A stretch of DNA of 61,334 bases, filler included, from Rhizaria sp. SCN 62-66 (Eukaryota): assembly GCA_001724265.1 (NCBI GenBank). It is 3 parts of 3 records of this genome, joined end to end, with 100 filler letters (N's around TTAATTAATTAA, not from the genome) between each part and the next. Parts side by side here need not be neighbours in the genome. Positions count along the whole stretch, not along the records: positions 18,974 to 44,031 come from MEDY01000482.1; positions 44,132 to 61,334 come from MEDY01000484.1; 1 more part is not named here. The stretch is one strand, 5' to 3'. The notes beneath the pieces were generated by a model. That model ran no database searches. It was not told the DNA's origin and saw nothing but the letters and a program-made list of their open reading frames with translations. Position 1 is the first letter of the stretch. Each line of letters begins with the position of its first letter. Below are positions 22,685 through 59,790 of this stretch, in pieces. The position numbers and the translations under genes were made by a program.

Positions 22685-25600
22685 ATGAACCCTTCATCAC
22701 ATGGTGGTGACTCCTCACTACTTGCGACTTTTCCCGCTGCATTTCGCGCTGCCGCAGTCACAACTGCTGCTCCTGCATCAACTATTGCTGCGCCCGTCGC
22801 TGCGCCGACTGTCTCTGCGCCTGTTGCTGCAAGAATGCAGTCCTACGGCCCGTCGCCCGCGCTTTTCGCCGCCAGCGCGCCCACGCTGATGCTCTCCACA
22901 TCGGCCTCTTCCGCATCGTCCTCCTCGTCGTTTGCTGCGACTGCGGCGCCCGCGCCTGCGACTGCTGCTGCGACCGCCGCATCTCCTGCTGTCCCGGGCG
23001 CTCCATCTGCCACTGTGACGCTCTCGGGCTTTACCGCCGTCCCTGTCGCCGTGCCCCCGTCTTCCACGGGCGCCGCCGCGCTGCCCGCGGGCGCCGTCGC
23101 AGCGCCCGGCCTGTCTACTCAGGGTCTATCCACTGGAGGCGTGCCCACCGGAGACCTGCCCACGGGAGGCCTGTACACTGGGGTCCTGCCCTCCAATGGG
23201 GGCTTGCCCTCCTCTGGGGGCTTGCCCGCGGGGGCCGTTGTGACGACGGCGGCGGACGGCTCGGGCCGCCGCGTGATGCTCGTGCGTACCGTGGTCAAGC
23301 GGCGCGTGCCCAAGGCCGAGGCCGCGCTCATCCGCCAGCGCCAGGAGGTCGAGCGACAGGCCGCCGCAGCCGCCTCAGCCGCCGCCGCCGCCGCCGCAGC
23401 CGCAGCCGTCGCATCTGGCGCTGCGGGCGCTGGCAACGCCAGCGTCAGCGCTGCTGCTGTTGTCCCTGCTGCTGCTGCTGCTGCTGCCGCTGGTGCTGGT
23501 GCTGGAGCCGGCGGCCCCGGCGGCCCCGGCGGCGGCTTCGGGCTGCGGTCGGTGCCGGAGGCCACTGCGGAGGAAGAGGACTAGCACGATCACCTCCACG
23601 ACGATGACAACGACGCGTACGACAGAGATCACGAACACGACCCCGAGCAGGATGTAGGGAGCGTGCACGGCAGAGCGCAGGAGCAGCAGCTTCACATTGA
23701 GTTCGATCTGACGGATTCTAAAACTAACAATGCAAACACTCTCGCCACTGGCAGAAACACGGCAAGCGCGCCGAACACAACTGCTGCCGCCGCCGCCGCC
23801 GCCGCCGCCGCTGCTGACGCTGTGCTGTCCCCGGTGGCGGCCCCGTCGCCGGCCCTGGCGCCCGACGTGTTCGTGACCCACGGCGACCACCGGCGCCACG
23901 CGCGTAGCCTCGGGGCCGCAAACGCGCAGCCCAGCCTGGACGCGGACACGGAAGAGTACGCGGACGCCACAGCTGCAGCTCCTGCTCCCGCTGCTGAAAG
24001 CAGTGGCCGCGGGCGCGAGCGCGAGCGCGCATCTCCCCGTGACGCGGCCTACTATCCCAGCGCGGCTTACTTTCCCGACGCGACGGCGGAGGCCCTGGTG
24101 CCCGAGACGGCGGCCGCGCTGGCCAAAGACAAGGATGCGCCTGCCAAGGACGCGCACGCCGCGTACCTGCAGGAGTCGTTTCACTTCCTCACGCAGCCGC
24201 TGGGCGCCGTGGGCGGCCGCCGCCGCAGCGCGACCCCCGCCGCAGCGGCCGCCGCTGCTGCTGCGAGCGCCACGGCCGCGGCGACGACGGCCTCGAACCA
24301 GTATGTTTCGTTCGGCGGCTCTGCGGCGGCGGGGTCCGCGCCCGGCTCAGCCCGCGGAGCGACACCCCCGGTCCCGGCCGTCTTTAACGGCGCCAAAGTG
24401 CTGTCTGTGCCACAGGGGCAGGGGCCGGGGCCGGTGACGCCGGGCGCGGGCCGTTCGCACTCGCAACAGCGGCGCGGCGGCGGCGGCGGCGGCGGCGCGC
24501 AGGGGCAGTCAATGCAGCAACAGCAGCAACAGCAGCAACAACAGCAGTTGCAGCTGCAGGCTCAGTCGCAGTCGCCGCCGCGGCCGCGGGTCTCGTTCGC
24601 CCCCGCTGGCACCGCCGCAGCCGACGCCGGCGCAGGCGCAGGCGCAGCGCCTGCCTCGGCGGCCTCGCTCGCCCACAGTGCTGCGCAGCCCGGCGCCGCT
24701 GACACGCAGACCGGCCTGCAAGCTGGCGCGCAGACCGGCGGTGCGCGGACCGGTGACCTGCCCGCGTCGCCGAGCGTGCTGCGCGTGACCTTCCGCCGCC
24801 CCTCGGCCTCGTCTCTCGCATCGTTTGCCTCGGACGCGCACGGCATGGACGGCAGCGACAACAACTTCGCCAGAGCGCTCGCCGCGGCCGCGGAGGACGG
24901 CGGGATCGAGCTGGCTGTGCGCAAAAGTAACAACGCCGGCAGCGCGGCCGCGGCGGCTGAGGCGGCTTCTGCGACCGTCGCGCCGATGCTCGCGGCGGAC
25001 GAGAGCTTCGACAACTCGTTCGACGCGCACTTCCTCCATGCCGGCGGCCAGCCCACCGGTGCCCCCGGCGCGGCCGCGGCCCCCGGTGCGGCTGCTGTCT
25101 CCGCGACGACGGCGCAAAGCGCGCACTCGCACAGCGCGCACTCGCAACGGCTGAGGCTGCCGCTGCACGCGCACGCCGGGATTGGCTTTGACGCCAGCAT
25201 CGGCGGCCGCTCCGCCAGCAACGGCGACGGCGACGGCGGTGATGACAGCGCGGGCATCGATGCGAGCGCGCTCAGCAGCTCGAGCCACAGCGCTCTCCAC
25301 AGCCTCGGCGACACGCTCGCGCTCGACACGACGATGACGGCCGCGACGCTTGCGCGGTTCGCCGCGGCCCCCGGTCACCCCGCCGCTGCGGCGGCGGCTG
25401 CGGCTGGGCCGGGGACTGGGCCGGCTGCAGGGACTTCCGCGACAGTGGGCTTGCCCTCGCGGCGGCTGGGCGGCTACGGCTACGGCCACAGCGTTGGTGA
25501 CAGGCACGGCCACGGCCGCGGCGGCGGCGGCGACGGCGACGGCGGCGGCCGAGGCCACGGCGATGATCACGACGACGGCGACGACGGCGTCAGCGACAGC

Positions 25601-28600
25601 GAAAGAGACCGCCACAGCGACGGCGTCGACTCGGCCGCCTCCGCTGTCAACTCGGCCTCGGCTTCCGTCGTCGCCGCAGCGAATGTCTCAGCCGAAGCCG
25701 CCGCGGCCGCGGCCGCCACTGCAGCCGCAGCAGCAGCGGCCTCGGGATCACCGCTGTCTCCAGCTGCGGCGCCTGTCATCGTCACCGTGTCTGGCAAGTT
25801 GCAGCCTCGCGCGGCTGACGCGTCGTCCGTGGCCTCGCCGACCGCTGTGACGAACGCCGGCAAGCCAGACTCGCCGGACGCCGCCAACGGGCCGCCGCGG
25901 CGCGGGCGCCAGAACAGCTTCAACTACGACATGGGCCTCGGCTTCGGCGGCTTCGGCGGCGGTGGCAGCGGCGTCGGCCTGAGTCTGCAGCCCTTTGCCG
26001 CCGCCGCCCCGGCCGCGACTCCCGCCGCCGCTGCGACGGGCGCGTTCAACTTCTTTGGGCCCGCGATCCCCGCCTCGTCCTCGGCCTCCTTCTACCCTCC
26101 GGGCGTCGGCGCCGGCGCGAGCGCCTCGCTGGCCCCCTCGATCACGGGCTCCAACTCCTCCTCCCTGGGCTCGTCCTCCGCGTCCTCCGCGCCCGTCTCC
26201 GCCTTCGCCTCCGCCGGCGCGTCCGGGGCCTTCGCCGCTGCGCCCGCGACGGCCGCCGCAACTGCTGCGGCCGCGGCGGCGCTGTCGAGCATGTCGGCGG
26301 CGGCCGCGGGCGGGCTGGCGCTGTCGCCGCAGGACGTGCTGCTGCGTGCGCTCTTCAGTGGCGACGCGGCGACTGTGGCCGCCGTGCTCGACTCGTATGC
26401 CACGGCCGACGCCTTCCCGCCGCCGCCGCCGCCGCCGCCGCCCGCGGCCGAGGACGACGACGACGCTGAGGCCGCGCGCGCGGGCGGCGCTGACTGGGCC
26501 GCGCGCCGCCGGCTCTCCACTGCCTCCACCTCGTCGGCGTCCTTCACCTCGGCGACGGCGGCCGCGGCGGCAGCAGATGCAGCTGCAGCGGCACGCGCAG
26601 GCGCTCGCGCGGCACCGCGTGGCGGCCGCGGCCTTCGCGGCCTCGACGTCGCCGCCGCTGCGCACGCTGGCCGCCTTCTCGTGGCCCGCGCTCTTCTTTG
26701 CCTCGTGCAAGATCGAACGCAAGCTGCCCGTTGCGCGCCTCGCGCTGCAGCGCGGCGCAGACGCCAACGCGCGCGACCCCCGCGCCGGCTCCTCCGCGCT
26801 TGCGCTTGCGGTGCAGTTTGGCCCCCGCGCCGGCGCGCGCGCGCTGCTGTGGGAGGCAGGCGCGGACCCGCGCGTGGGCGGCGACGTCTTCAACTGCCTC
26901 CAGCAGGCTTGTCTGCGCGGCAACGTTGACTTCTTGCTCGACTGCTGCGCCGACACGGACGCAGACATCGACTCCGACGAAATCGCCGTGGTCCCCGCAC
27001 CGCTCTCTCACTCGTCCGCTGGCCCCGGCGCCGCGAGTGACAGCGACTTCACGTCAGCCGCCGCCGTCGCGATGAGCGCGATGAGCGCGGCGGGCGGCCG
27101 TGAGTCGGCGCTGGCGGCGTTTCTCGCGCACCCGCGCGTGCGGTGGCTGAGCGCCGCGCCCAGTTGCGCCAGCACGCCCGCAGCGCCGCGCAGCGCGCTC
27201 GCCGACGCGGAGGCCGGCGTCGTCGCCGCCAAGCGCGCGCTCCTCGCGCGCGGACTCGCGCTGCGCTCGCCCTTCGTGGTCGGGTTGGAGGGCGACCCCG
27301 CGTCCGCGGCCGGAGACGGCGGCCCCTTAGACGCGGGTAAGGGCCCCGCGGACTATGACGCGGACGACGCCTACGACGAGCTGGGCATGTCCATCTGGTA
27401 CCAGCTGTTGGGCGTGCGGGTGGCGCCGCTGCGCCGCACCTTCGTTCCGCTGACGTACACGGGCCCGCTCGCGGACCTCGTCGCACCCGCGTTGGCGACC
27501 CTCGCGGCAGGCAGCAGCGCCGGCAGCGGCAGCGCGAGTGCGAGCGCCGCGGGGACGGCGAGCGGGGAGTCGCTGGGCCTGGCGCGGCAGGCCTCCTCCG
27601 TCTCCGGTCTCTCGACCACGGCGGGTCTGTCGGGCACCGCCGGGCTGGGCCACGCGCGGCGCAACAGCCAGACGGCGTACCTGCCTCCGCACGGACACGC
27701 GCACCACGGTCACCACCACGGCCACCACGGCCAACAGCAGCAGCATGCGCCGCCGCCGCTGCCGCCGCTGCCGCACCTGCTGCCGCCCGCCGCGCTGCGC
27801 CTGGCCGCGGCGGGGCTGGTGCCGCGCCCGCGCGCATTCGCGCTGTCGGTCCGCTCGCCGTACGGCCCGCTGCTGTCGTTCGCCCTCGCCATGGGACTGC
27901 ACGACGCGCTCGTCGCGATGCTGCGCGTCCTCGCCACGGCGCCGCTGGCCGCCAGCCCGCTCTACCGCCGCGCGCTGCGGGCGCGCGCGGAGGCCGAGGC
28001 CGGCGGCGGCGGTGGCGGCGGCGGCAGCAACAACAACAGCGTCGGCGACAGCGCCGCGAACGCTCTGAGCCGCATTAGCAGCAGCAGCGCCGTTGGCATT
28101 AGCAACAGCAACAGCAGCAGCAGCAGTAACAATGGCGCGCGTGCGGAGGAGGCGCTGGGCGACATTGCGCACCTGCGGGGGCGGCTTAACTTTGCACCCG
28201 ACGACGACGCGGCGCGGCTGCTGCTCTCCTGCCTGCTGCACGCGCCCGCGGCCGTCACGCGCACGCCCTCATCCGCGTTCCACGGCGGCGGCGGCGGCGC
28301 GCCGGGCGAGGGCTGGGTGGCAGAGCAGCTGCAGCAGCAGCGCGGGCTGCTGTACCAGGTCGCCGCGGGGCCCGAGTTCCCCCACCAGGCCGCGCTGCTG
28401 CGGCTCCTCGCCGCCGCCGGCGCCGATGTCGACGGGCGCGGGCCCAGACGCACGCAGTCCGCTCTCGCGCAAAGCCGCTCCGGCGGCGCGGACGCGACGG
28501 GGCTGGCGGGCGCGATGCTCGTGGAGCGCCGCCGCGTGCCTGCCGCGCGCGTGCGGCGCCGCGTGCGCGGCTCGGGGCTGCTCGCGACGGCCGCCGCGGT

Positions 28601-30377
28601 CGAGCTGGTGTTGCTGACCGAGCCCGCGGTGTTCGCGCCCCTCACGCAGGCGGCGGCGGCCGCGGCCGCCGCGGCGCCCGGCGCGCTGGCGGCGGCCGCG
28701 GCCGAGGCGCCGTCGCCGCTGCTGCCGCTGCTGGCGCTGCTGCTGCCGCGGCTGCCCCCGTTGGTGGCGCTCGAGCCCGGCGCCGCGCTGCTCGCGCTGC
28801 CCTCGCTGGAGCAGTTCCTGCTGGGGCCCGGGCGCGCCGCCGCCGCCGCGCTACCCTCCCCGGCCGCCCTCGTTGCTCGCGCAGTCACAAGAGGCCCGCT
28901 GGGGCTGCTGCCGCGGGTGCCACGCGCGCCACTGCCGCGCGCGCCCCCGCTGGCGGCGGCGTGCGCGGCGGGCGCCGTGGCGGCGGCGCTGACGCTCCTG
29001 CAGCTGGGCGCGGACCCCTGGGCGCGCGACGAGAGCGCCGCCGGAGCCAACGCACTCGTTGCGCTCGTCACTTCGCCGCTCGCGGCCACGACCGCGGGCG
29101 CGCTTCTCACCAGTGGGCCCGAGTCCCCCGACGCGCGCTCGCGCACTGAGGGCGGCGGCGAGGCGGGCGGCCCGGTGGCGGGCGCGCAGTGGTGGCTGGC
29201 GGTGCCGCTGCCGGGGCGCCGCTGCACACGCGCCCGCAGCGCGGCCGCTGGCGACAGCGACACCGACTCCGACGCAGACTCGGACAGCGACGGCGACGGC
29301 GACGTCACTGCCGCCGACACCAACAAGCCCCAGCGCGGCACTGCCGACGCCGACTCCGGTGGGTTTGCTAAGAGTGTTCAGAGCGAGGCCCGCGCGTGGC
29401 GCCGCGCGCACCGCTGCGCGGCCTCGGCCGCCCCGTGCTCGCGCTGCCACCGCGTCGTCGCACTCTCGCCCGCCTCGGCCTCCGACGCTGACGCCGCTTC
29501 TGCCGCGGGCGGCGCGGGGCCGGCGGCGGCGGCGGCGCGCGGCGGCGGCGCGTCGCTGGCGGCGGCCGTGGTGACCGCCGCGCGACTGCGCCAGTGGTAC
29601 CGTTACCGCGCGGGGCTTTGGGCTGACCCCGCCGCGGACGGAGACGGCAGCGACGACGACGACGACGACGAGGGCTTCGGCGGCGACGACGGCGGCGGGG
29701 GCGGTGACGCGGACGTGTACAACACCAACGCGGGAAGCGGCGGCGGCGGCGGCGTCGAGCGGCGCGCGCGGCGGCCCCGCGTTGCGGCGGCGCTGAGCAA
29801 GCGCGCCCGCGCCCGCGCCCGCGCGCGCCTGCGCAGCCGGCTCGACGGCTACCCGCTGCCGCCCGCGGCCGTGCTGTCGCTGCTTGCCGGCGTTGACGCG
29901 TCCCCCGCGGGCGCGAGTGCGACTGCGCAGCGCGAGCAGCAGGAGGAGGAGGGCTGGGAGAGTGTGGCCGCGACGGTCGCCACGGGCCGCCCGCTGGATC
30001 TGGCCCACGGCGCGCACCCCGCGCCGCAGCTGCCTGTGCCGCCGCGCTACCTCTCCGCGGCCCGCGGCGCGGCCGGCGCGGCTGGCGGCGCGGCGGGGGC
30101 GCGGGCGTCGCTGGAGCCGCTGCGGCGGGCCTGTGTGCTGGCCGCGTCGGCAACAGTGAGTGCCGTGGCCGGCGGGGCAGTGGCGCTTGGCGCGTTCGAG
30201 TGGGCCACGGTCATGGCCAGGGACTGTGCGGAGGCCGCGGGGACGTGGGGCAGCGCAGAGTGGGGCGGCGCAGAGGCCGCGGCAGAGGCCGGGGCGTGGG
30301 CCGCGGTTGTGGACGAGATTGCGGCCGCGGAATCGGTGCCGATCGACGGGATTATTAATGTCGACGACGAGCTGTGA
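22685..30377 (+). CDS. Very large low-complexity protein with C-terminal ankyrin-like repeats (about 2560 aa if the TAG at 23582 is read through and a +1 shift at about 26570 is corrected)
   Basis: ORFs 22685-23584 and 23663-26929 share a frame and are separated only by one TAG. Protein-like sense moves to the frame of ORF 25995-30377 at about 26570. Ankyrin-like units: ALQRGADANARDPRAGSSALALAVQFG, LWEAGADPRV...CLQQACLRGNVDFL, LAAAGADVDGRG, PLAAACAAGAVAAALTLLQLGADPWARD. Ends in TGA. Confidence 0.65.
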
Positions 30378-30901
30378 TTACTGATCAGTGTACTTAAAAA
30401 ATGATTTATCGATACATAGTGACTTATTGATTCTCAATACACGTGATTTTCTTTGTGACTCATCAATATCGCTGGTATCTGACTTAAAATGATATTGTCA
30501 GGTGTTCCTCTGCGGGAACGGCTATCTAAGTTTGACCGAGTTGAGACTGGTGATTAGAAAACTGAGTATTCCAGTGTCTATAGATCTTCTTAAAAGATTT
30601 AATAAGAGTATTCGTTTCAGTGAAATGCAAATATTTTAGTCACTTTGTAACGATGCCACTGACGGATGTCTAGCGTGTTTCCTGACGAAAGTATGCCGAA
30701 TCTTCGTTTGAACATAGGACGCTCCTGTGACGTCAGATAACCGTCTTGTAGAACACTTTCTATAGACTAATTTGCAATTATCTCACAACTTTTCGGTTTT
30801 ATAGACATTATAGATACCAATTGCATTGCATAATACTCTATAGGCCTTGATATTGATACTGTAATCCGGTCCGAACAGATCGTCCAGCGTCCAACCCCAC
30901 C

Positions 30902-43683: not shown

Positions 43684-44031
43684 ATGGGTACGTAATAACT
43701 GCTACGCGTATTTTCTTTCTCGCATGTTTCTGCGCATGGGTGTGTCGATCGCTTTCGGCGTAGAGATACTATTCTGAAGTCTTCGTCCCCGCAAAGACAC
43801 TGGGGGCTCGCTCTCTGCTCAGCTCTCGACCCGTCTCGCCCCCCCTGTGCCCTGTGCTCATCTGATTGCCCTGTCGTTGTGTTGTGTGTGTGTTGTATAG
43901 GTATTACTCGTAACTCTCGTCACAAGCGCCGTTCCACCGGTGGCCGTCGCGCTGTCCACCAGATGAAGCGCAACTACGAGCTCGGCCGTCCTTCCGCCAA
44001 CACCAAGCTTGTCGGCGACAAGAAGCAGGCT
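43684..44031 (+). CDS. RPS8: 40S ribosomal protein S8 (eS8), 3'-truncated by the gap; exons 43684-43687 and 43901->44031
   Basis: ATG-G|GTACGT...TAG|GT-ATT gives [38 protein letters not shown], matching eS8 (MGI.R...HKRR.TGG.R...KR.YELGRP.ANTK). Confidence 0.92.
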
Positions 44032-44131
44032 NNNNNNNNNNNNNNNNNNNNNNNNNNNNNNNNNNNNNNNNNNNNTTAATTAATTAANNNNNNNNNNNNN
44101 NNNNNNNNNNNNNNNNNNNNNNNNNNNNNNN
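44032..44131. other. Artificial contig/scaffold linker (44 N + TTAATTAATTAA + 44 N)
   Basis: Exactly 100 nt; RPS8 does not resume after it. Confidence 0.97.
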
Positions 44132-44323
44132 ATGGACTATTTCGCTCGTAGTGAAATAGAAAAGTGCGCACCAAGGCGCGAAAATCGCGGAAAACACGTT
44201 TTTTCATAAACCTCTACATCGGGGGTACTACGTATTTATTAAATTGCTTAACTTGTAAGGCTACATAAGAGCACATATTGTACATTCGTCGAATCCCTCT
44301 AAATGTATGATTCTACGACGGTA

Positions 44324-44347
44324 GTACGTACGTACGTACGTACGTAC
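44324..44347. repeat. (GTAC)6 self-complementary tetranucleotide microsatellite
   Basis: Read directly from the sequence. Confidence 0.95.
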
Positions 44348-44863
44348 CTACGCAAGTCATTTTGCTCGCGAGTCGAGTACGTCGTTTTCTGAGGCTAAAG
44401 GGTGTTGTATTCGCAAATTATTGCAATTGACGCAGTATTTTGCAATATATGCTGTTGTTTGCGCCAATAGTGACATGTGCGCATGACAAAAACACATATC
44501 TGATGATTGAAAGAGAGAAGAAAGCGGAGGAAGACAAGGAAAACGGAAAAAAATAAAGCAGAAACAATTGGAACACATGGCAAACTACGACTCAAGTGAC
44601 ACAAATTTCACCGAACCAGACAGTACCAAAATTAAAGTACACTACTAGTATACAAGCACAGGAACGTGTCCTGCAGCAAAAGCAACACAAAGCAAACACG
44701 CGATAGCGAAAGCGCGAACCGAATCAACGCGCCGACAAAAAGCTGTGGCAACACAACGCGACACCGTGGCGTAGGCAAACAAATACAACTCTCGTTACTG
44801 CCTTGCTTCATGATTCGGTGCTGAATGCCACTGTTTGTCATGCTATTGCAGAGCAGTGACTGT

Positions 44864-47800: not shown

Positions 47801-48580
47801 CTCGTGCTTGGCGAAGAGCCGCTGCACCTCATCCAGCTGCCACTGCGTGCTGCGCTGCGCCGCCTGCGCCTTGCGAAACTTGACCACCTCTTCGGCCAGT
47901 GCCGCCGAGTCAGCCTCAAGGTCCTTGACCGGGCGGTACAGCGGCTGCTCCTCGGCGACCGCGCCCGCGCCACTCGCACTGGCGTTGCCGCCGCTGCTGT
48001 TGGCGGTGTTGCGCGCGCTCGAGGCCGGCGTCGAGAGCCCGGCGCGGGCGGAGTTGGTCCCTGAGCCCGAGCTGGATCCCGCGGCGCCTGGGCCCGCGGT
48101 GGAGCTGGTGCCGGTGGTGTTGCGGCGCACGGCCGTCACCGGCGAGCGCGCGGAGCTGGAGCTAGAGCTGGCGCTGGGGTTGGGGTTGGTGCTGCGAGCG
48201 CTGGCAGGGGTCGTCGGCGGCAGCTGCTTGTTCGAGTTCGTGGCGGAGGCGCGGCGCGCGGAGGACGGGCCCGGAGTGGCCGGGGCCGGCGCGGCGGGCG
48301 CAGACGGGGACGCAGCAGCAGCCGCTGGAGCGGGGGCCTCGGCTCTAGTAGTGGCGCTGGCGTCAGCGGCGGCGGCGGGCTCGGGGCTGGCGGCGGCCTC
48401 CGTCGCAGGGGCGGCGGCAGAGTCAGTGTTTACGTCCGTGGCAGCAGCAGCGTTCTCAGCCGCAGCCGCAGTCGTAGTCTCGGCGGAGGAGGACTCGGGC
48501 ACGGAGGTGGTGTTCTCATTGTCTTTGCGGGGGCCTGCGTCGGCCGCGGGGGCGCTGGCGCCCTGTTCTGTGCCCGACAT
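44864..48580 (-). CDS. Hypothetical long coiled-coil protein with disordered S/T/A-rich N-terminus and Q/N/G-rich C-terminus (about 1238 aa)
   Basis: Open frame from ATG 48580 (MSGTEQG) to TAA 44864-44866; central E/A/L/K/R-rich heptad-like region; strong GC3 bias. No family recognised. Confidence 0.8.
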   Translation of the reverse strand: MSGTEQGASAPAADAGPRKDNENTTSVPESSSAETTTAAAAENAAAATDVNTDSAAAPATEAAASPEPAAAADASATTRAEAPAPAAAAASPSAPAAPAPATPGPSSARRASATNSNKQLPPTTPASARSTNPNPSASSSSSSARSPVTAVRRNTTGTSSTAGPGAAGSSSGSGTNSARAGLSTPASSARNTANSSGGNASASGAGAVAEEQPLYRPVKDLEADSAALAEEVVKFRKAQAAQRSTQWQLDEVQRLFAKHESAYSQLVGEFTALSKEKDALRRQGKGFQRDLATLREDLQAMVASHEHEDKTRDEAQAAERADRARLAAEAEAARAALAADKAALEERVAELERVMARERANWVASDEAHKANEAALEDKVAETEARVRAAQAETGGERKELRNVRLELRESSQHGAELQAELVAANTKVAELTRQVADLKPWEVKFHSLQSSADKDEALAAARIAELEHERKCYRVILKHLVKTMFRNMLLLRAGICTAIARTSTLLLTATAEVDKLRALAKPGALPKAESSPPAVMGPEPLGERFVPLSSPAWAKALQTAVGKRRVEIRKLLVSLKGVSLGALVDTLDTEVARLCEPVEVLSRRLWSYYNTCVSLGQASIQKTGAHLEADIMLEELQKEHAQVLAELEETRAGRDKERASREAVQAKLAILEREVAQSARTRKQAQHVEALLREHSKLQSVQEHLALTKQRIKLLKDQHSEQLETLTQLQQQQQQQQQQGQGQVQQEQQGQFANSNGHMSSSARLNNGPYMQQQQQQQQHHANSSSSSRGSARPLAPQYSALLAHTVDSSLLGPQGQQQGGKSAANRSPNSPYRHANGATGGGGGGGGGGGGDQQLVLPRVPSSSASGSNGTGAGSGKASAPRGSGSNNSNNNGNASNGAGAAAVGASSTGSRGVKPNNNSNSNGDDSALPAISRGPSRSGNNNGNGHSGRASRNGSYADSYGDGNDDNEDEDVADDHDDDGSEGKRPPRSKQPASVVLTQGPGAQGFDSALVTSLGLVDELTEEQQERHRARRLAQQDASRRALGDAKRMWAQDGNGVSQRDVEHERYREKERQKRANAAAAAAAQQGQQGQQGHGHGQSGSTSGARRPPPPANRPELPAALQGGVASSYYVPGASGAHSHAHGAGYSQYNGGAAAGGGAKRKAGTGTPYRVGLNEQQHQQPQHQQHGKRQSMTTTTNASGGGSEGAVLTKSQLSLVKAQEKLIQHQQQQQQQQQQ

Positions 48581-49533
48581 AAGAGAGGAAGCACGTAACA
48601 AAGACGACCAGCAGGCGCGCGCGAGTGGGGGAGCTGTAGCGACAACAAGACTGGGGGCAGTTGTTGTGGGTGCAGGTCTGCTGCGGTGTGGGGTAGTTAC
48701 ACTGTCGAGAGCGGCGCAGAAGAAGGCGGGGTGCCCTTATGACCGGTCGACAAGTGTGGGTAAGGTCTAGGTGAGTAGTCGGGATGCGGTATCAGAGATA
48801 GAGAAAGAGGCACACGAGTGTGAGCAGTGATAAAGCATGTGATGTTAAGGGTGACCGGAACATCGGCAGTGACTACAAAGAGGCTGCTGCAGAAAACAGG
48901 ATGACAGAGATGCAATGAAATCAAAGACACACAATAATGACAAGTGCATCATACACAAAACCCTTCGAGTTTCTTTCAATTCGCCTGCTTTGCGGTTGAG
49001 AGACAATGATAAAAGCGCGTATCAGGAGGGTGGTAGAGTGCCCTCTCAGCAGAAAAGCAAAGTAGTGCTGGAGTCGAAGCATGGCACTAAGTTCACTTAC
49101 TAAAACAAAAAAAGATAATTCACGTCACCACTCCTCTTCGAGTTGAACCCTGTTTGAGTTTGTCGGTTTTTAACGGTGAAACGAACTCATCGAAATCTCT
49201 CGAGACGAAACTGCCAGCGGCTTGATTTTGGCTCCTCTCTGACCAAGAAGACCGACCACACAAGCGATCGACCGAGCGATCGCTCACGGTCACCCGCGAG
49301 CACCAGAGTCAGCACAACGAGGGGCCAAAATGATGGTCTATTTCGCGATGATAGATCCGTCATTTAGTATCATCCACCACACCATGGGTAGATATATGAG
49401 TTTTAATGCCATATCCTTGATTGTGTTCTCTATAATCACATTAAGCTTTATATCTACCGCTTTGTTTCCATGCTGTCGCTCACTCCTACAAACCACCCCC
49501 GAACCCTGCCGCCACTGCCCTGCTCGCAGCGAT

Positions 49534-50146
49534 ATGTCTTCCATCGCGCTTGCTAAGTCCAAGGACTGGAAGGTCATTTACCCCATCAGCATGGACAAGT
49601 CCCGCTCTGTCAGCGAGGGCCGTCTTGTGCCCTCGTACCTCGCTCTCTCGCAGCCCACTGCCCGCGAGATCGGCGATGCCTGCCTCCACTTCCGCATCCC
49701 CTACGTCATCGAGGTACGCCATGGAACTCATATGTTATTCGCCCTTACAGATGCAGATGCACCGCTTTTTTTGTCCGTCTGTACATTTCTCCTTGCTCTC
49801 AATGTTCGTTGGTGCACAGCAGGTTTCTCACCTCCCTCATCTTGTCCACCTTTGCTTCCTCCTCTCCACCTCCACGCCCCCCTCGCTCCAGCCCAACAAG
49901 CGCCACCCTTCGGACCCGTTCACTGCGGGCCGCGTGCGCTATCAGCTGGACCGCGACGGCGTGCTGATCGTGGACGATGTGGCCTCGAAGCCCGCGCTGG
50001 CGCGGTTGCTTGCCAAGCACATTGCATCTACGCCCATGCGCCTCGAGCTGGCCAAGAACAAGGCCAACGCGGCGGCCGCGGCGGCCGCTCCCAACCGCGG
50101 CCAGCCCAAGGCGCCCAAGGTCAAGAAGATTATTATCCGCCGGTAA
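49534..50146 (+). CDS. SRP19: Signal recognition particle 19 kDa protein; exons 49534-49713 and 49892-50146
   Basis: WKVIYPISMDKSRSVSEGRLVP...PTAREIGDAC...IE|PNKRHPSD...GRVRYQL is the SRP19 signature; intron 49714-49891 (GTACGC..CAG); basic C-terminus; ends in TAA. Confidence 0.92.
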
Positions 50147-50963
50147 ATGCGCGCGCCCGCGCGCCACGTTTGCTGTCCGCTATATACGGGGGACTCACAA
50201 GCAGGGCACAGACTTTAATAAATGGTCTGGCTTGAGCTGTCGTTGCTGCTCATGATCCTTGCGCTTGCTGTGTTTTCCCGCCCGCGTGTAGCCGTGACTG
50301 TGAAAGTATCAGTGCTGATGTCAGCCTCATTATGGCTCATTAAGTCGAGCTGCTGATGTTATGAACTCGCCCCCTGTTTTATTTCGATATCTTGTCATTT
50401 TATACCTGATTACATTAGCCTACCTTCCATGAATACATAAACGTCGTCTTTATGCTATTGCATTTAGCTGTCGATATTGAATTCAGCAACAACTCTCTAA
50501 CATGACGATGACTCGTAGCAAAGGAGAGTTTAATGTATTCATTATTTGTACGTAATCATCACTGTTGTTACTTGCTGCGAGCACGACCAACTGACTGGCC
50601 GACAACACAGAAATAAAAAGATACGAGGCAAACAGGAGAGGGTTTTCAAAAGTAAACATAACAAAACAAAGCACAGATAAGATTTACGTGCACGACGTGT
50701 CACCACGACACATCTCGACATTAAAGTGAAATAAATGTACACAAACAAACAAAAGTTCCAAACAAAAAAATGTCGTCGTTGTAACAGCAAACAATTAAAA
50801 CAGAAAAAAAAACGGCAACAGCAATACGTGATATGAACACAAACAAGCAAGAACACAAGCAATAGTCTTTTTAAACCCTTCACAAGTCACTTATAACAAG
50901 GTGCTCACACAGCTCGCGACCGCTCCCAGTGTGACACTGCGCTGCTGACAGTCACTTGGCTGC

Positions 50964-52580
50964 TCACAGTCCGCCGGCCTTCTTCGCGAGCCAGTTCTCG
51001 CGCCGCGCGATCTTGCCGACAGTGGCGTCGTGGACCATGTGCAGCACCGCGTCGCGCAGCAGCTCGGGCTCTTGCTCCGCGTGCCGCTTGATGAACCTCA
51101 GCGCCAGCTCGGCCACGGGCCCCGCCTGCAGCGGCGGCCACTTGCGGTAGTCGAGCAGCGTCTTGGGCGTCTCGAGCCCGATGAGCCGGTCGCGCATGAG
51201 CACGAGCTGAGCGACGACACAGTAGAGTGAGGCCGCGGGGCCCATCGCCAGCAGCGTGTCCCATAGCCGCACGGCCTCGTGCAGCGGCGCCACAGTCGCG
51301 GACATCGTCTTGACGCAAGGGAAGGCGTAGAGAATCGCGGTGAGCGAGGGCGTGCCGCTGGCGAGGTGCGTGTAGAGGTCGGGGTCAATGCTGGCGAGCA
51401 GTTTGTCGATGAGGTGGCAGCCGGCCTCGACACCGATGTGGTTGGCGCGCCAGTAGAGCGGGATAGCCTGCGTGCAGAAGAGCGAAAATGCGTTGAAGGC
51501 GTCCAACTCGGGCATGATGTAGAGGAAGACTCCGGCGTAGACGTTCATGCCCTGGCAATACTGCCAGTCGTCGCCGGCGAACTTGCGGTCGAACGCCGTG
51601 CACACGCGCGCGATGGCCTGCTCGGGCACGTTGTTGAGGAACGGCGACGCCTCGCGGTCGCTCGTATTGAAAGTCCGGAACGAGTCGTCGCGGATAAGCG
51701 GAAAGCGCTTCGAGGGGCCCTGCGTCGTCAGGGAAATGTACTCGGAGGCGGAGGTCCAGGAGCGAAGGTAAGCCGCGGCCAGACTTAACGCCGTCTCGGA
51801 GCCAGCCGCGGGATTCGCAGCCGACTGCTGCTCGGGGTCTGTGCTGCTGCCCGTCTTGTCCTTCTTGTCTTTGCTGGTGTAGGCGTGCGCGGCCTCACTG
51901 CCGACGGTGTACAGCGCGGCCAGGAAGGGCCCAGTGATGAGCAGCTTCCACACGGCCGCGCGCGGGCTGGCGGCCACGCCGCACGTCGCCACTGCCGCGT
52001 TGCGCAGCGCCGCCGTCGCTGGGTCGATGTCCAGCAGCTTCGACTCGGGCCCGCAGACCGCGTCCCAGAGCTCGGTCACCGCCGCCGCGTCGGCCTCGGC
52101 GTCTGCGCCGCCGCTGCTGCCGTCGTTCTTGGTCTGGGCCGCGCCGTGGGCCTTGATGGCGGCGGCGGCGTCTGCGGCGACGGCGGCGAGCGCGTCTGCG
52201 GCCGCGATGTTAGCCTCGGTCTTAAGGCTCGTGCTGTGCGGTGCGTAGGCCGAGGCAAGGCCCAGCTCGGCGCGGCGCGACAGGTGCAAGTCGTGCTCGT
52301 AGACGGGGCCCAGTCCGTGCGCCGTCACGGCGTCGCGAAGCTCGCCCAGGCACGCGGTCAGCTGCGCGGCGAGGGGCGGGGACGGCTGCAGCGGCACCGA
52401 GTGCTGCTGCAGGAACGAGTGCACAATCTGGAGCGCGGCCGCGACATGCGGGTCGAGCTGGCCGGAGACGGGGAGGTCTGACATCGCGGAGGACGATGAG
52501 GATGAGGATGTGACTGTTCCAGTCGCGGCTGTAGAAGGGGGCAGGGCGACGGGGCCGGCCGTGGTTGAGGACGAGCTCAT
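50964..52580 (-). CDS. BUB2: Bub2/Cdc16-type TBC-domain GTPase-activating protein
   Basis: TBC catalytic fingers IRDDSFRTF and YCQGMNV, plus Bub2/Cdc16-like segments GVEAGCHLIDKLL, LYAFPCV...PLHEAVRLWD...CVVAQLVLMRD...WPPL. ATG at 52580, TGA at 50964-50966; no intron. Confidence 0.8.
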   Translation of the reverse strand: MSSSSTTAGPVALPPSTAATGTVTSSSSSSSAMSDLPVSGQLDPHVAAALQIVHSFLQQHSVPLQPSPPLAAQLTACLGELRDAVTAHGLGPVYEHDLHLSRRAELGLASAYAPHSTSLKTEANIAAADALAAVAADAAAAIKAHGAAQTKNDGSSGGADAEADAAAVTELWDAVCGPESKLLDIDPATAALRNAAVATCGVAASPRAAVWKLLITGPFLAALYTVGSEAAHAYTSKDKKDKTGSSTDPEQQSAANPAAGSETALSLAAAYLRSWTSASEYISLTTQGPSKRFPLIRDDSFRTFNTSDREASPFLNNVPEQAIARVCTAFDRKFAGDDWQYCQGMNVYAGVFLYIMPELDAFNAFSLFCTQAIPLYWRANHIGVEAGCHLIDKLLASIDPDLYTHLASGTPSLTAILYAFPCVKTMSATVAPLHEAVRLWDTLLAMGPAASLYCVVAQLVLMRDRLIGLETPKTLLDYRKWPPLQAGPVAELALRFIKRHAEQEPELLRDAVLHMVHDATVGKIARRENWLAKKAGGL

Positions 52581-53349
52581 TGGAGCTTCAAGCCGACGCA
52601 AAAACAACGCAGTAGAGTGGTTGGCGCGTTAGACGAGGTCTTTATGGCGCTGTTGTTCGGGTTGGGGGCACGGCGCGTGCTCTGCTTCGAGGAGAGAGCT
52701 GTTGGAGGCGCGCGAGCAGCAACAAGGAGTGTTGCCCTGAGGGAAAGCTGCGGGCTGTCAGAGCGCGGTCAGCAGTAAGAGCAAACGTGCGTGCAGGTAG
52801 TTGCGCGGGTGGGTGCGGTGGCTAGAAAGGAGATACGGCGGGAGACAAGGAACGTGAGATGAGAGGTGGACACGAGCCAAATCAAGAGGAAAAAAGGGGG
52901 ATTAAGAAAACAGGCATACATGATCACCAGCTCGACTGTTTGGACATTGTTCAGCGATAAAACGAGAATGTGTTGCAATATATACTATATCGGATATATA
53001 CACAATTTGACGATTATTTTAGTGTCGAGCAGCTCAGTTTAATGAATGCAAACGGGGAGGCAACCAACGTGTCGTTTCTGATTCGAGTTTTTCAGAACCG
53101 GCGTGGCGGGATGAGACAACGGAAGAAACCGCTGATCTTTTAGTGCACATAGAGCCTTCAAAAATCTGTCAGTATCTCTGTTGACCCACATAACAGTAAA
53201 ATAATAGCGTGGCTAATATTATTCAAATTGCAATATCTGTACTGTATGTATATACATGCTCATACTCTCTGTCTCCAATCGCCCATTTCCCCAGTCCTCT
53301 TCGCTCTCTCACACCTGCCAGACCGAGTCACAGCAACCTCATCGCATCC

Positions 53350-56300
53350 ATGAGCACCTACCCCGCGCCTGGCGGTGGTGGCGACGCTCTGCCGTCTCTG
53401 ACGGACAGCCGGCGCATGATCTCCGCGCTCGACAGCCTGACGCTGCAGCGCTCCCGCGGCGGCCCCGCCCCTGCGCCCCCTTCGTCGCTGCATCCTTCGG
53501 CCACCACCGGCGCGGTGGCCTCCAGCTCCGCGCAGTACTCCGGCCAGGGCCTGCATTCCACCCCATCCAAGTCCGCGCTCTCCCGCTCCGCGCACTCGAT
53601 CCTCGGGACCGGCGGCGCCGCCTCTACCTCGCAGGCGGTGCAATCCCCGCGTTTGCCATTCCCGACGTTGCCCAGCAACACAAACGCCGGGCTCAGCAAG
53701 ACGCAGTCGCTGCTCGCGTCCCCACACTCGCTCGGCGTTTCGCACGGGCCCGCGCTTCCAGCGGCGTCGCCTGGCTACGTGGCCGCGAACAGCGCGGGCG
53801 CATCAGCCGCCGCCGCAGCCTCTGGCTCTGGCTCCGTCTCGAGCTCTAGCAGTGCTGCAGGCTTCGTGACTGCTGCTAGTGTGGAGCGCCGCTTGGGCGC
53901 GGTGCGCGAGCTGCAGCTGCTGCAGGAGGAGAACGCGACGCTGCGCGTGCAGGCGCGCCGCATGACCGAAGAGCACCAACGGCAGAAGCACGGCCAGGCC
54001 GAGCTGTGCGCGCGACACGACTCGCTGCAGCAGCACTACCAGTCGTCGCAGGCGCTCGTGGCGGCACTGCAGGCCGAAAGCGCCAAGTCGCGGCGCGAGC
54101 TGGCGCTGCTGCTGTCATCCTCGGCGCAGGGCCAGCGCATCACCGAGCTTGAGGCCGAGGTGGCCCGGCTTAAGGCCGAGACGGCGAGACTCAAGGATAA
54201 GGTCGACGAAGAGCGCGCCGGCGCCGAGAAGGTGCAGGGCCGCATGGCACAGCTCGACGAGGTTGCGGCGCGCGCCCTGCGTGAGCTGGCCGTCTCCGAG
54301 CGGCTGCGCACCGAGGCCAAGGACAAGGCCAAGATTGCCGCGTTGCAGGCGAACCTGAGCCGCGCCTAGGTGAGTGAGACCGAGAGCAGCGAGCGCGTGG
54401 CCGAGCTCAGGAAGCAGGTGCTGCGCGCTGTCGAGCAGTTTGAAACGACCGAGACGGAGCGCATTAGCACGCTTACGCTCAAGTACGTGCAAGACCAGCA
54501 CTCCGCGTCGCTGGAGAGCGACAACCTGACCGCGCTGCGCACCAAAGTGCGCGAGCTGGTGCAGCAGCTCACCATCACCTCGGCCTCACACATGCGCGCT
54601 GCGCACATGATCATCTCACTTCGCGAGCGCGTCACGGAGCTGGAGAACAACAACGCCGAGCTGGCCGCTAGCGTCACCGTCGCTGAGAAGGGCCGCGCCG
54701 CCGCGCAGCAGACGGCCGAGTCGTTCCGCGACGCGCACAGCACCGAGGCACAGCGCGCGGCCGCGCTCGAGGCCGCCGCCAAGGCCGCAGGCACTGAGTC
54801 GCGCCAGAACGACGCCGGCGCCGCCTTCTACCGCGACCAGCTGCAGCTGCTCACGGCGCGCGTCGCTCCCGCCGAGGCCACGCTCGCGGAGGCCAGGCAG
54901 GCGGCGGCTGCGGCCGCGGAGCACGCTACTGCGGCTGAGGCCAAGGCCGACCTCGTGGGCCGCGAGCTAGCTGCAGCGCGTGCGGCCACTGAGACGGTCG
55001 AGAGGGACCGCCAGGCTGCGGCACAAGTACGTAGACCAATGTTAGACCAATGTTATGTTTTTTATGCATTTTTCAACATGTTTGCTATGATTTACCTTGT
55101 TTCACAATATATTGCCGATATGTTATCATTCGTTTTATCTTAATTTGTCTTCAATTGTTTTCTCTAGGCTGCATCTGCGGCCCTCGCTGCTGCTAACGAG
55201 AGCGAGCGCAAGCGCGAGCGCACTGACCGTGAGCTCGTCTCGGCGCGCACCGAGATCGACGCTCTCAAGGCCGCCGTGGCGTCACACATCGCGGCCCGCA
55301 GCGAGCTTGTGCTTAAGCTCACCTCTAGCTCCAGCTCCAGCTCCAGTTCCAACGCAAGCACGGATACTCCCGCGAATGCTATTAATGGCAGCGGTGTCGC
55401 TGTGACCGCTGACGGCATTGCGCGGATGCAGCATGAGCACCAGCAGCAGCTCGCAGCCGTCCGCAGCACAGTCACAGAGCTCCAGGCCGAGCTTTTCTCC
55501 CGCGAGGCCTCGCTGGCTGCCGCATCCGCTGATGTGGCCGCCGTTAACGACGAGTGTGCCGAGCTCACCCGCGACCTCGCCACTGCGCACGCGCTGGTTG
55601 CTGACTTACGGGCCGCAGTGCGAGCCAAGGACAGGCTGATTGCGTCGCTGCCCAAGCCGCCGCCGACGCGGCCGTCGTTTGCACTGCGTCCCAACAACAC
55701 CACTGCGAAGAACGCGAGCAACAACAACAACAACAGTAATAACAACGCGGCTAATATCGGCTCGAGTGCCGCCAACATGGAGGCAGCCGCGGCCGCGGCT
55801 GCGACGGCGGCAGACGAGGCTCTGCATAACCACTTGGCGCAGGAGCGTGACAAACGCGCCCGACTGCGCGCCGCGCTGCGGTCGCTCGAGCCTCTGTTTG
55901 CGGCGACGACTGCGCGCGTTGCCGCTGCTGCCGCCTCCGCAGCGTCAACATCCGCCTCTGCTGCGAGCAGCTCCGACCTGCCGCAGTCGCAGCTTCAGCA
56001 GCAACAACAGCACCAAGAGCCTCCTGCGGTGTCCGCCGCTGCTTCCGCCGCCGCCGCACTGCGCTCCTTCATGGCGGCTCTGGACCAGGAGCGGGCTCGC
56101 CACCGCGACCTCTCGGTCGTCGGTCGCCTTATCCACGGCCTGCTAACCCACGTCACGGCCGCGCTCGACGCTGCCGCCGCCGCCGCGGGCGCCGGAGCGG
56201 ACACCGGGGCGAAGCTCGCCGCGGCCGAGCGCGGGGAGGCGCGCGCTCAGGAGCAGTTGGCGCTCGTGATGGGCGAGCTGCGGGCCGCTGCGTCGGGCGC

Positions 56301-59300
56301 GGCGAGCGCAAACGAGCGCGTGAGTGCGCTCACGCTCAAGCTGCGCGCTGCCGAGGCCGAGGCCGCCGCCGCGAGCAATGCCATCACAAGCACTAGTGCG
56401 AACACGAGCACTGCTAGTAACACTGCGAGTGGTGTCGTGGCGAAGCACTCTCTCGCCGAAGCAAGCGCGCGCGTGTCGCAGCTTACCACCGAGCTCTTGG
56501 CGTCGCAGCACAGCCATCGCGCCGCCGCCGCCGAGGCTGCCGCTCTGCGCGCCAAGCACGCGGCCTTGCTTAAGGAGCACGCCGCGGCCTTCACCGAGAC
56601 CGCCGCGCTTAAGACGGCGCTGGCCCAGGCCAAGGCCGACCTGCGTCTGCTGCCGGCGACCGCGGACCGGCTCCGCGCGCTGCTGCTGACGGAGCAGGCG
56701 CACAAGGCGCTGGCGGGCACCGAGGTGGCGTCGCTCAAGACGCAGCTCAGACACCTGCGCGCGATGCACGGCAAGAGCAACGGCAGCGACGACGCCAGTG
56801 TCGGCGGCGCTAGCGTCGCCGCGACGGCGTCAGGCTCGGTCTCCGCGGGCGGCCTGGTGAGCCCTGCCGAGGAGGTCGACGTGCTGCTCAGTGGCTCCGG
56901 CACCGTGGCGCAGGCCGTCGCGTCTCTGCTCTCAACGCTGATGACGGCTGCTGCGACCGCAACGGCTCCCGCTGCCGCAGCGAGTACGCTCGCTGCTCCC
57001 TCTACTGCAAGCGATGGATCCGCTGCGAATAGCAGCAGCCACAGCGGCGCCAGCGGCAGCGGCGGTGCTGACTGCGACAACGCCGCGACTGCAGCGGCCA
57101 TCGACGCCGCGTCAGCTCGCGTGCGCACCATCGCCCGCGCGATCGACTCGTTCTTGATCTCGGTCTCCACGGTCGAGCGCGACTGCCCGCAGCTTGCGTC
57201 GCTCACGCGCGCACTCGCCGGACTGGCCACCTACGTCAGGGCCGTGCCGGACGCCGAGGCCGTCACGCTGGACAGTCTGGTGACCGCGACGGCTGCGCTT
57301 GACAAGGCCAGCGCTGCTGCGACTGCGGCCGCCACGGCCAACGACGCCGCTGCCGCGATCAGCAACAGCTCGAACAGCAACTCCGACGACGCGAGTAGCG
57401 GAACTGGCTCAACCATGAACGCTCTTGTGCTCTCGGGCTTGAACAGCAAGCGCGCAGGTGTTGCTGGCGCGACTGGCCTTGTCGTCTCGCCGGTCAACAT
57501 CTTGTCAGCGACTGCAGATTCATTGCTTGCACTCGCTGCCGGTCTACCTCTATCCGTTGATTCTCTCAATAACAGCAGCACAAACTCGAGCTCCAGCGCC
57601 AATGCGAGCAGCGGCAGCGTGACTGCGAATGGCGGTGATATCAGCGCGACCGAGGGCGCTTCGCTGCGCCCGCTGCCGCCGCGTCCCACCGCGGCCGTGC
57701 TGACTCAGGTCGCAGCGCTGTTGCGTCGCGTACGTGACGTGTTTGCGGGCCTCGACGCAGTGTCTGCAGCGACGCGCGCGTGCGCCAACCAGCTCAACGC
57801 GCCTTGCTCTCAAACCAGTACCGGCAGCTTGAGCGCTGTGGTTTTAGTGGGCGCGAGGAGCGCTGGCAACGCGGCGACTGCGTTTAGCATGACGAAGGCG
57901 ACTGCAGAGGACCCGTCTCTGGCGCCCGCGTCTCTCGCCACCGCCGTCACCGCCGCGGGCCGCACGTATCCCAGTGTGCTCCCGCTCGCCGGCGCCATTA
58001 GTGCGCTGTCTGCACGCGTGGGCGACACGGTGCACGTGGTGAGCGCGCTGACCACTGCGCTGCAGCCCTTTACCTCAGGCTCCGGGGCCCTTACATTAGC
58101 ATCGACTGCAAGCAGTGACTCGAGCTCATCTGCTGCGACCAGCGCGCTTGCCAGTCTGCGCACCAACACCCTCCACACGCTGGCGCAGCGTTCCGCTATC
58201 ACGGCGCCGCTTCTGCAGTCCCTCGACAGCGTGCTCGGGCACTACCAGCACTCGCACGACACGGCCTCGCGCGTCGCAGCGGCCGCCCGGTCTGCGACTG
58301 CCGCCATGCAGCGGGACATGACTGTCAGCAGCCACAGCGCCCTTGCGCCGGCCAACGGGAAGTCTTCGAGCACCGGCAGTAACGGCCACGCAAGCAACGA
58401 CGCCGACGCCGCAGCGATTGCTCTCGCGACGGGACTCAACACGTTCCTCTCGACTCTCAACAGCAACAACAACTGCGCGATTGCTACCACAAGCAGCGAT
58501 CCATTGATGTCGACCCTGACGAGCTTCGGCTATCTCTGCTCCGACACTGTCTCTGTCGCCCGTGCTGGTGCGCTTGTTGCTCTCGAGCTGCGTCGCTTGG
58601 ACGCAGCTGCCGCCAGCGTCGCCACGCTCGCAAACAGCACCGAGAACTGGGCAGTGCACTACTCTGCAACCGCGTCTGCTGCCCCGAGTAGCTCCACTGC
58701 TGCAGCCACGTTGCTGCAGTCGCAGACCGCGGCCTTCAACGCCGCCGTGACCAACATCTCCGCGACTCTGCGCCAGGTTGCGTCCGCATCTGCTCTGGCG
58801 CCCACGCTCCTGCCGCTTGCCACGACTCTCCTGTCTGCAGTCTCCACGATTCAAACGCTGCAGTCGGCGCTTGCGCGCGCCCCCACAGCGGCCGCCGCCT
58901 CTGCCGCGGCCGCTGCGGTTGCTGCCGCCGAGGCTGAAGCAGTGAGACTCCGACGCCGGCTGCGGTACGGCGGAGCAGCGGGTGCGGCAGCGGTGGCGGC
59001 GCGCCAGGGCCTAGTGCGCTACCTGGGCGCGTCGTTCGCGCCTGCTGTCGACTACCACCAGCAACAGCAGCAGCTCGCTCGCCTGAACCCAGCGTCCGCA
59101 GACGCGAACACAGACGGTAGCAACGCAGGCCCCACTGAGTCATCGCGGGCGTTGGTAGTCATCTCCCGCCTCGCGGCCGACGGGCCGCTGGAGCTGGCCG
59201 GCGCTCGCGAGGGCGACACGGTTCTCGCAGTGGAGACCACTACCGTGGCCGGTCTGGAGGACCTGCAGACTGCGTTCGACGCGCACTGTCACGTCGGCCG

Positions 59301-59790
59301 CTCCGTCGCCGTGCTGCTGCGGCGCGCGGCGGCCGGTGGGCGCGGCGAGACGCTCGTGCCCGTTGTCGTCAAGGTCGGCGCGCAGGGGCTGTCGCCGCGC
59401 GCTACGACCGCCGTGCTTACGCTCGCGCGCGCCGAGGGGACCGACTGGGCTGCCGCCGAGGCCGCGGTCACGGCCGCGACCGCCGCGTCGAGCCAGGACG
59501 CGCCCAACGCGGCGGCCGCGGTCGCGGTGGACTGGGAGGCGGTGGCGCGCGACAAGGACTGCGCGGCGCTCTGGCGCGACACGGTCGAGCGTGGTGCCGT
59601 GGAGGAGCTGTGGGACGAAACGGCCGGCGTGAGCGATGACGAGGACGACGCGCGCGCTGGCGACAAGGGCGCGCGAAAGGGCAAGGGCAGGGGCCACAGG
59701 GATCACGGGGGCAGTGATGAAGATGAGGATGAGGACGAGGATGAAGATTATCACGGCAGCAAGAGCGACGCTCACGACGATGATGACTAA
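53350..59790 (+). CDS. Large coiled-coil protein with C-terminal PDZ-like domain (about 2099 aa if TAG 54367-54369 is read through); exons 53350-55026 and 55168-59790
   Basis: ORFs 53209-54369 and 54370-55143 abut in one frame across a single TAG. An AT-rich intron 55027-55167 (GTACGT..CTAG) joins in frame to ORF 55276-59790. PDZ-like segment: YLGASF...VVISRLAADGPLELAGAREGDTVLAV...GRSVAVLLRR. Acidic tail; ends in TAA. Confidence 0.72.

Follow-up and report, generated by a model that had tools for sequence, protein, structure and literature searches.

To our knowledge, nuclear genetic codes that split UAG from UAA are confined to a handful of lineages, in all of which the change is old and the codon common. 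Iotanema spirale (UAG read as glutamine), the rhizarian exLh (UAG read as leucine) and the phyllopharyngean ciliates (UAG read as leucine or glutamine) carry in-frame UAG while UAA and UGA serve as stops, as described in PMC5304391 and PMC11687900. For exLh, 384 UAG in 71 genes are given in PMC5304391, and PMC11687900 gives internal UAG in 78-91% of the genes of phyllopharyngean ciliates, where it makes up 6.5-32% of the codons of its amino acid. The stretch of DNA analysed here (61,334 bases from Rhizaria sp. SCN 62-66, referred to as the window) is like these systems in having in-frame UAG beside UAA and UGA stops, with one TAG in each of two long genes: gene 1, which encodes an ankyrin protein (TAG at 23582-23584, site 1), and gene 2, which encodes a coiled-coil protein with a C-terminal PDZ domain (TAG at 54367-54369, site 2). 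A reading made from the sequence only had proposed that UAG is decoded in this lineage as an amino acid, by local context glutamine or glutamate, and is rare because of GC bias. With just two such codons, the evidence below points to broken or leaky genes rather than establishing a new genetic code.

The features of the two genes are listed below, with lengths in nucleotides (nt).

22685 to 26569, plus strand: gene 1, first reading frame, alanine-rich and low-complexity; open but for the TAG, with a positive coding score throughout
23582 to 23584, plus strand: site 1, in-frame TAG at codon 300 of gene 1; read directly, coding score 0.28 upstream and 0.48 downstream
23617 to 23754, plus strand: possible in-frame intron of gene 1, 138 nt, GTACGA...CTAAC...CAG; GTAC-type donor, GC dip, periodicity lost
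26565 to 26577, plus strand: frame switch (+1) of gene 1 in a GCG/GCA/CAG repeat; over some 15 nt the coding score leaves frame 2 and passes to frame 0
26577 to 30377, plus strand: gene 1, second reading frame, ankyrin repeats (Pfam Ank_4, 8.4e-07); ends with TGA at 30375
53350 to 55026, plus strand: gene 2, exon 1, with the conserved N-terminal coiled-coil domain, the TAG and more coiled coil; from the translation and a five-sequence alignment
54367 to 54369, plus strand: site 2, in-frame TAG at codon 340 of gene 2; read directly, coding score 0.53 upstream and 0.58 downstream
55027 to 55167, plus strand: intron of gene 2, 141 nt, AT-rich, GTACGT...CTCTAG; from the sequence, with a DNA contig of sequencing run X4 running through it
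55168 to 59790, plus strand: gene 2, exon 2, 1540 codons, ends with TAA; open frame, weak PDZ_2 match (0.001)

A codon-usage log-odds score was trained on eight other open reading frames (ORFs) of the window (11,590 codons) and was applied to the flanks of all stops in six frames. When 60 stop-free codons were required on each side, a single stop of 210 scored above 0.2 on both flanks and this was the TAG at 54367. With 100 stop-free codons on each side, seven of 71 stops scored above 0.1 on both flanks, led by 54367 (0.53/0.58) and 23582 (0.28/0.48), while the remaining five were antisense or off-frame shadows of real genes with scores of 0.26 or less. The claims that both TAGs are on the plus strand in frame, as read directly, and lie inside coding sequence, as indicated by the best two-sided coding scores among the 71 stops, were therefore upheld. 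Each TAG is the sole stop in its frame from the first ATG (22685 for gene 1 and 53350 for gene 2) to the next structural break. Third-position GC remained at 0.86-0.94 without a break across site 2, and site 1 was located within an acidic run (EEED-TAG-HDHLHDDDND). Separate genes 3' of the TAGs were considered and rejected, as the first in-frame ATG after site 1 is 310 codons downstream, the first methionine after site 2 is residue 75 of the following ORF and the coding signal resumes at once there. A minus-strand gene at site 1 was set aside, the antisense score of 0.46-0.74 at 23560-23740 being the shadow expected of aspartate and histidine codons. Both TAGs occur early in their genes: site 1 is codon 300 of about 2,560 and site 2 is codon 340 of about 2,100. 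With random positions this would be a coincidence of about 1 in 50.

The frequency of the codon was not that of a sense codon in ordinary use. TAG was found twice in 13,908 codons, in two of approximately 15 genes, and was absent from the genes of 3210, 2351 and 1290 codons. No TAG was present in the conserved domains of the window, which comprised the DBT, ORMDL, purple acid phosphatase, TBC, Suf/HAT, LRR and ankyrin parts. Neither TAG was encountered at a conserved alignment column, as the column of site 2 is variable and site 1 is in a region for which no relatives were found. From the usage of TTG and CTG (78:666), 53.9 TAG would be predicted if TAG were a neutral glutamine codon beside CAG (P of two or fewer, 6e-21), and 85-95 TAG would be expected in the window at the lowest published reassigned shares. 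The attribution of the rarity of TAG to GC bias was therefore not sustained, since TTG versus CTG usage predicts about 54 TAG, and the proposal that UAG is an ordinary if rare sense codon was not supported when set against the 78-91% of genes with internal UAG in published lineages. In the UAG-only lineages described in PMC5304391 and PMC11687900 UAG is common and found at conserved columns, whereas the window has it in two of 13,908 codons and at no conserved column. Of the sequence-only reading, the in-frame TAGs and the absence of TAG from gene ends were supported, and the ordinary sense codon was not. What is left of the proposal is narrower: a UAG that is nearly unused, perhaps leaky, and at an early stage of reassignment.

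The explanation that we prefer, tentatively and with slightly less than half of our confidence, is that the standard code applies and both TAGs are ordinary premature stops, one in a young pseudogene (gene 1) and the other in a loss-of-function allele (gene 2). Single-base nonsense changes would have arisen in two very long, fast-evolving, low-complexity genes, and translation would terminate at both. Gene 1 would probably be a young pseudogene because, beside the TAG at codon 300, it has a 1-nt frameshift some 1,000 codons further on. Gene 2 would be a conserved gene with a recent loss-of-function allele that has become fixed or predominates in the strain captured in several bioreactor and wastewater metagenomes. 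At the codon usage of the window, 70-73% of single-base nonsense mutations give TAG, and two TAGs out of two are therefore unremarkable, an outcome to be expected in about half of cases. The window resembles ordinary nonsense alleles and young unitary pseudogenes in its single-base stops in otherwise intact frames, gene 1 also carrying a second lesion, and departs from them in the high rate observed (two of about 15 genes), the sole allele seen at site 2 and the lack of TAG among the gene ends. How probable each explanation is hinges mostly on the frequency of fixed nonsense alleles in such organisms.

The 13 gene ends that had been listed from the sequence were all confirmed as to their codons, and a fourteenth was added at 10738 (TAA, the Suf/HAT-repeat gene). 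Nine of the 14 genes end in TAA and five in TGA, so that the claim of no TAG ends while UAA and UGA terminate was substantiated on the enlarged set. The chance of no TAG among 14 ends is 0.10, 0.044 or 0.018 at a TAG share of 15, 20 or 25%, and under the standard code the result would be a small-sample effect in a genome strongly preferring TAA, which is the dominant end despite third-position GC near 0.85. The UAG-only lineages are similar in that no gene ends in UAG and UAA is preferred, as indicated by PMC5304391 and PMC11687900. The GC content of the 150 nt that follow the 14 real stops was 0.33-0.59. The same interval after site 1 had a GC content of 0.55, inside the range of real stops, which weakens site 1, and after site 2 it was 0.63, above all 14 real stops. 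A TAG-ended small ORF on the minus strand (41378-41560) was rejected as a gene, since it is located in intergenic DNA of 41% GC and its translation is not protein-like.

The TAG of site 2 is real DNA and not a sequencing error, as the same bases are present in independent assemblies. The JGI contig L001, the only match in a metagenome scan with gene 2, was identical to the window over 53077-54664 including the TAG, and a contig of run X3, which belongs to another study, spans 52901-54666 with no differences. The 339-residue ORF that ends at the TAG was recorded from six contigs and the ORF that starts directly after it from three contigs. A one-residue variant of the latter (P0005), which represents a second haplotype, was on two contigs and had the same start. 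No TAG-free ORF of 307-979 residues was found for site 2 in the protein collection, by a search that was able to show a 597-residue ORF. A comparison with contigs of other strains covered 44132-61334 and included a divergent strain (runs X4 and X6) that is about 2.5% different. No X4 or X6 contig was present across 54367 among the contigs listed, and there was no difference at 54367-54369 among the 40 of 213 differences listed. Contigs of poly(A) RNA from run X6 flank site 2 at 53667-54031 and 54579-54894, with none listed across 54367, and no RNA joint for the gene 2 intron was present among the contigs listed.

A HMMER search of 1.84 billion representative sequences with gene 2 gave seven hits, which were two pieces of the window itself, four clear relatives and the marginal P0010 (E 6.7e-04). 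The relative P0008, a distant orthologue, is an uninterrupted ORF of 2059 residues under the standard code with no internal TAG, and has a JGI twin on a 75-kb contig. P0008 and gene 2 are colinear, with 40% identity in the N-terminal domain, 28% overall and, in the final 260 residues, 27% (E 6.8e-12). P0008 has a PDZ_6 match above the Pfam cut-off (2e-07). Gene 2 is thus conserved and otherwise intact, with the colinear P0008 and the C-terminal PDZ marking a recognisable domain 1,700 codons past the TAG. As P0008 is colinear and open over 2059 residues, the gene 2 product should run through codon 340. In the five-sequence alignment the column of site 2 has glutamate in P0008, alanine in P0007 and valine in P0013, and an amino acid for TAG can therefore not be deduced from it.

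The family of gene 2 is unnamed by any source and was represented by five metagenome sequences, including P0006, P0007, P0008 and P0013. As seen over 53350-54100 of the window, about 130 residues of its N-terminal part are well conserved (…LQ.ENA.LRIQ.RRMTEEH…LLS.S.QG), and a PDZ domain lies at its C-terminus. The start of P0008/P0011 is GTG, given as methionine in one source and valine in JGI, and has no nearby ATG, so that the true start must lie further upstream, past an in-frame stop or an intron. Two sequences from another relative, P0009 and P0013, on a 20.6-kb contig, both stop six codons past the position of site 2.

Several of these observations weigh against ordinary premature stops under the standard code. 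Gene 2 is otherwise intact, with 1,759 stop-free codons of full codon bias 3' of the TAG, and TAG was the only allele seen at site 2 (in the window, L001, the X3 contig and the recorded ORFs, over two haplotypes). A sister strain differs from the window at 17 of 1,202 and 3 of 584 letters downstream of the TAG versus 20 of 754 upstream, a lower downstream divergence that is unlike decay and constitutes weak evidence. No TAA or TGA was found to interrupt any gene of the window when the flanks of stops were scored in six frames, and TAG was missing from all 14 gene ends. Moreover, two broken genes of about 15 are many for a free-living protist.

These same points would be accommodated if UAG were translated at an early or inefficient stage, either as eRF1 reads UAG poorly or by means of a low-level suppressor tRNA with a CUA anticodon. 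UAG would then have been purged from gene ends and tolerated rarely in the weakly constrained parts of long genes, with UAA and UGA staying stops. We regard this as a serious possibility that is nonetheless doubtful, to be held with about a third of our confidence. It would account for two TAGs that are the only stops of the window with a strong coding signal on both sides, for the lack of TAG among 14 ends of which nine are TAA (published UAG-only lineages likewise favour UAA, according to PMC11687900), and for a site 2 TAG that is the only allele across assemblies and two haplotypes in a gene that is conserved and intact downstream. The amino-acid character is also continuous over the TAGs, with an acidic run at site 1 and a coiled coil at site 2, and neither TAG has a splicing solution. 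What it leaves to be explained is a codon 25 to 45 times rarer than any published reassigned UAG or the neutral expectation, with none in the genes of 3210, 2351 and 1290 codons or at a conserved column, and an orthologue (P0008) without an internal TAG. It further requires the frameshift of gene 1 to be blamed on the assembly, and site 1 was not confirmed in a second data set. The 61-kb window contains no tRNA with a CUA anticodon by ARAGORN and Rfam, while PMC11687900 describes suppressor tRNA genes in two ciliate genomes. An eRF1 gene is likewise absent from the window.

Theories of code change, namely codon capture and the ambiguous intermediate, predict a transient stage in which a codon has ceased to act as a terminator and as yet finds little use as sense. 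The window might thus come from a GC-rich, intron-bearing, non-ciliate bioreactor eukaryote that was caught in the middle of a UAG stop-to-sense change, which we consider rather unlikely. At such an intermediate stage UAG would have been cleared from the gene ends and UAA favoured, and the first UAG sense codons would appear at unconstrained positions of long genes, with decoding by a weak suppressor tRNA or by near-cognate tRNAs in competition with an eRF1 that reads UAG poorly. The ambiguous codes of Condylostoma, karyorelict ciliates and Blastocrithidia are alike in that a stop can be read as sense within genes; in these organisms such codons are reported to be heavily used in genes and also to act as terminators, whereas TAG in the window is neither frequent in genes nor seen as a terminator. 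A literature search revealed no report of a GC-rich wastewater eukaryote with UAG as sense and no description of a stage in which UAG is neither a terminator nor much used as sense.

Splicing and gene-specific recoding were evaluated at both sites. Conserved genes yielded four introns, of which the acyltransferase gene has two and ORMDL and gene 2 have one each. All four start with GTAC (GTACGT twice, GTACAT and GTACGC), are AT-rich and end in YAG. Their bounds are 14279-14115 (minus strand), 13936-13739 (minus strand) and 16645-16864 (plus strand), these three being approximate, and 55027-55167 (plus strand). The GTAC start in four of four introns is an unusually uniform donor motif, and two of the four acceptors have the form TAG followed by G. 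In-frame GT/GC...AG intervals were enumerated around both TAGs, and splicing of the local intron type cannot remove either TAG. From the GTAC donors upstream an in-frame intron would have to span 372-1362 nt at 68-74% GC, and rescue by splicing was rejected. GTGAGT, a textbook donor in many eukaryotes, occurs directly 3' of site 2 and was also rejected as a donor since it does not fit the local GTAC type. A perfect copy of the GTACGT donor is present in coding sequence at 54483-54488, 116 nt 3' of site 2 (AAG TAC GTG), and nothing suggests its use.

Programmed readthrough, U to C editing of the RNA or an unusual intron, acting on these particular genes, would be suggested by the early position of the TAGs (codons 300 and 340 of genes of roughly 2,100-2,560 codons), by the GTGAGT directly after site 2 and by a TAG followed by G that has the form of two of the four local acceptors. 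Such gene-specific events appear very improbable given the uniform GTAC-type, AT-rich introns described above and the lengths and GC content that the upstream donors impose. The 120 nt 3' of each TAG were predicted to fold no better than shuffled sequences (z +0.48 and -0.06), similar to controls after real stops (-0.07 and +0.72), and a structure-driven readthrough was rejected as a likely cause. The contexts TAG-CAC-GAT (site 1) and TAG-GTG-AGT (site 2) do not match the CARYYA readthrough motif, and no RNA contig was present across site 2 among those listed in the comparison of 44132-61334. Programmed readthrough in cellular and viral genes is alike in having UAG followed by a long open frame, whereas no stimulatory context or structure was found here. 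The cellular readthrough extensions known to us are short and not 1,700-2,200 codons.

The GC content drops to 54-59% for about 170 nt 3' of site 1, and the putative intron at 23617-23754 would lie downstream of the site and would not remove the TAG. Past this interval the frame of site 1 keeps its coding signal for about 940 codons, and no Pfam family was found in the first frame. At 26565-26577, where the frame switches, there is no AT-rich stretch or GC dip, and the switch is therefore a 1-nt frameshift in the assembly and not an intron; the shift may be genuine or may stem from an error of the assembly. The new frame opens with an ATG at 26577. The switch is a further disabling lesion in gene 1 beside the TAG, while gene 2 has none in 1,759 codons.

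For site 1, no match was found in other assemblies and nine guessed gene 1 ORFs were absent from the protein collection by exact look-up, and for gene 1 the homology search gave no relatives and a pattern scan no match. The site 1 TAG and the frameshift might accordingly be errors of assembly or strain mixing in a metagenomic consensus, with site 2 as a single real nonsense allele. Consistent with this, both lesions share one gene in a repeat-rich stretch of 75-80% GC, and neither was recovered in other data by the ORF look-ups, the homology search or the pattern scan. The long frames of 3210, 2351, 1540 and 1290 codons are unbroken, which implies a low error rate, site 2 was reproduced exactly in independent contigs, and a failed look-up does not show an error. 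A consensus artefact was therefore judged improbable, and a young pseudogene under the standard code is the reading of gene 1 that we tentatively prefer.

If the organism is indeed at an early stage of reassignment, the process of code change would be directly observable. If it is not, the window serves as a warning: in genomes rich in third-position GC about 70% of nonsense mutations give TAG, so that a few in-frame TAGs, combined with a small set of gene ends free of TAG, can mimic a change of the code.

The window consists of three contigs with linkers between them; the second contains site 1 and the third contains site 2. The remaining features are given below.

18874 to 18973, no strand: artificial joint between contigs, N44-TTAATTAATTAA-N44; six-frame-stop linker, read directly
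44032 to 44131, no strand: artificial joint between contigs, N44-TTAATTAATTAA-N44; six-frame-stop linker, read directly
22097 to 22169, minus strand: tRNA-Met (CAT), the sole tRNA of the window; ARAGORN, Rfam 65.7 bits

As the window is not one molecule, synteny across 18874-18973 and 44032-44131 is meaningless. The DNA is eukaryotic, with long GC-rich exons of third-position GC near 0.85 and about 24% alanine, AT-rich intergenic DNA of about 41% GC and AT-rich GT-AG introns. Genes recognised by Pfam included those for a DLEC1-like Ig protein, a Suf/HAT-repeat protein, a 2-oxoacid dehydrogenase E2 acyltransferase, a 3210-residue LRR protein, a purple acid phosphatase, SRP19 and a RabGAP-TBC protein, in addition to the ankyrin protein of gene 1 and the coiled-coil protein with C-terminal PDZ of gene 2. 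Sequence of the window was present in bioreactor, wastewater and microbial-fuel-cell metagenomes from seven studies, and it may derive from one of the sequencing runs. Taxonomic look-ups gave no more than generic eukaryotic families. A metagenome scan with the TBC protein, as well as genome-contig and viral-contig scans, found no further DNA of the organism or its relatives. Protein searches with the Suf/HAT protein and gene 1 returned the query itself or nothing and were probably swamped by low-complexity words. The middle contig ends at 43920-44031 within what we take to be a ribosomal protein S8e gene, in the portion encoding the N-terminus, a family recognised by eye with no search made. 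The first contig closes (18795-18873) with two copies, 49 nt apart, of a 30-nt direct repeat (GGACTATAACTCACACGAACAAAAATGAAC), which was probably the cause of the assembly break.

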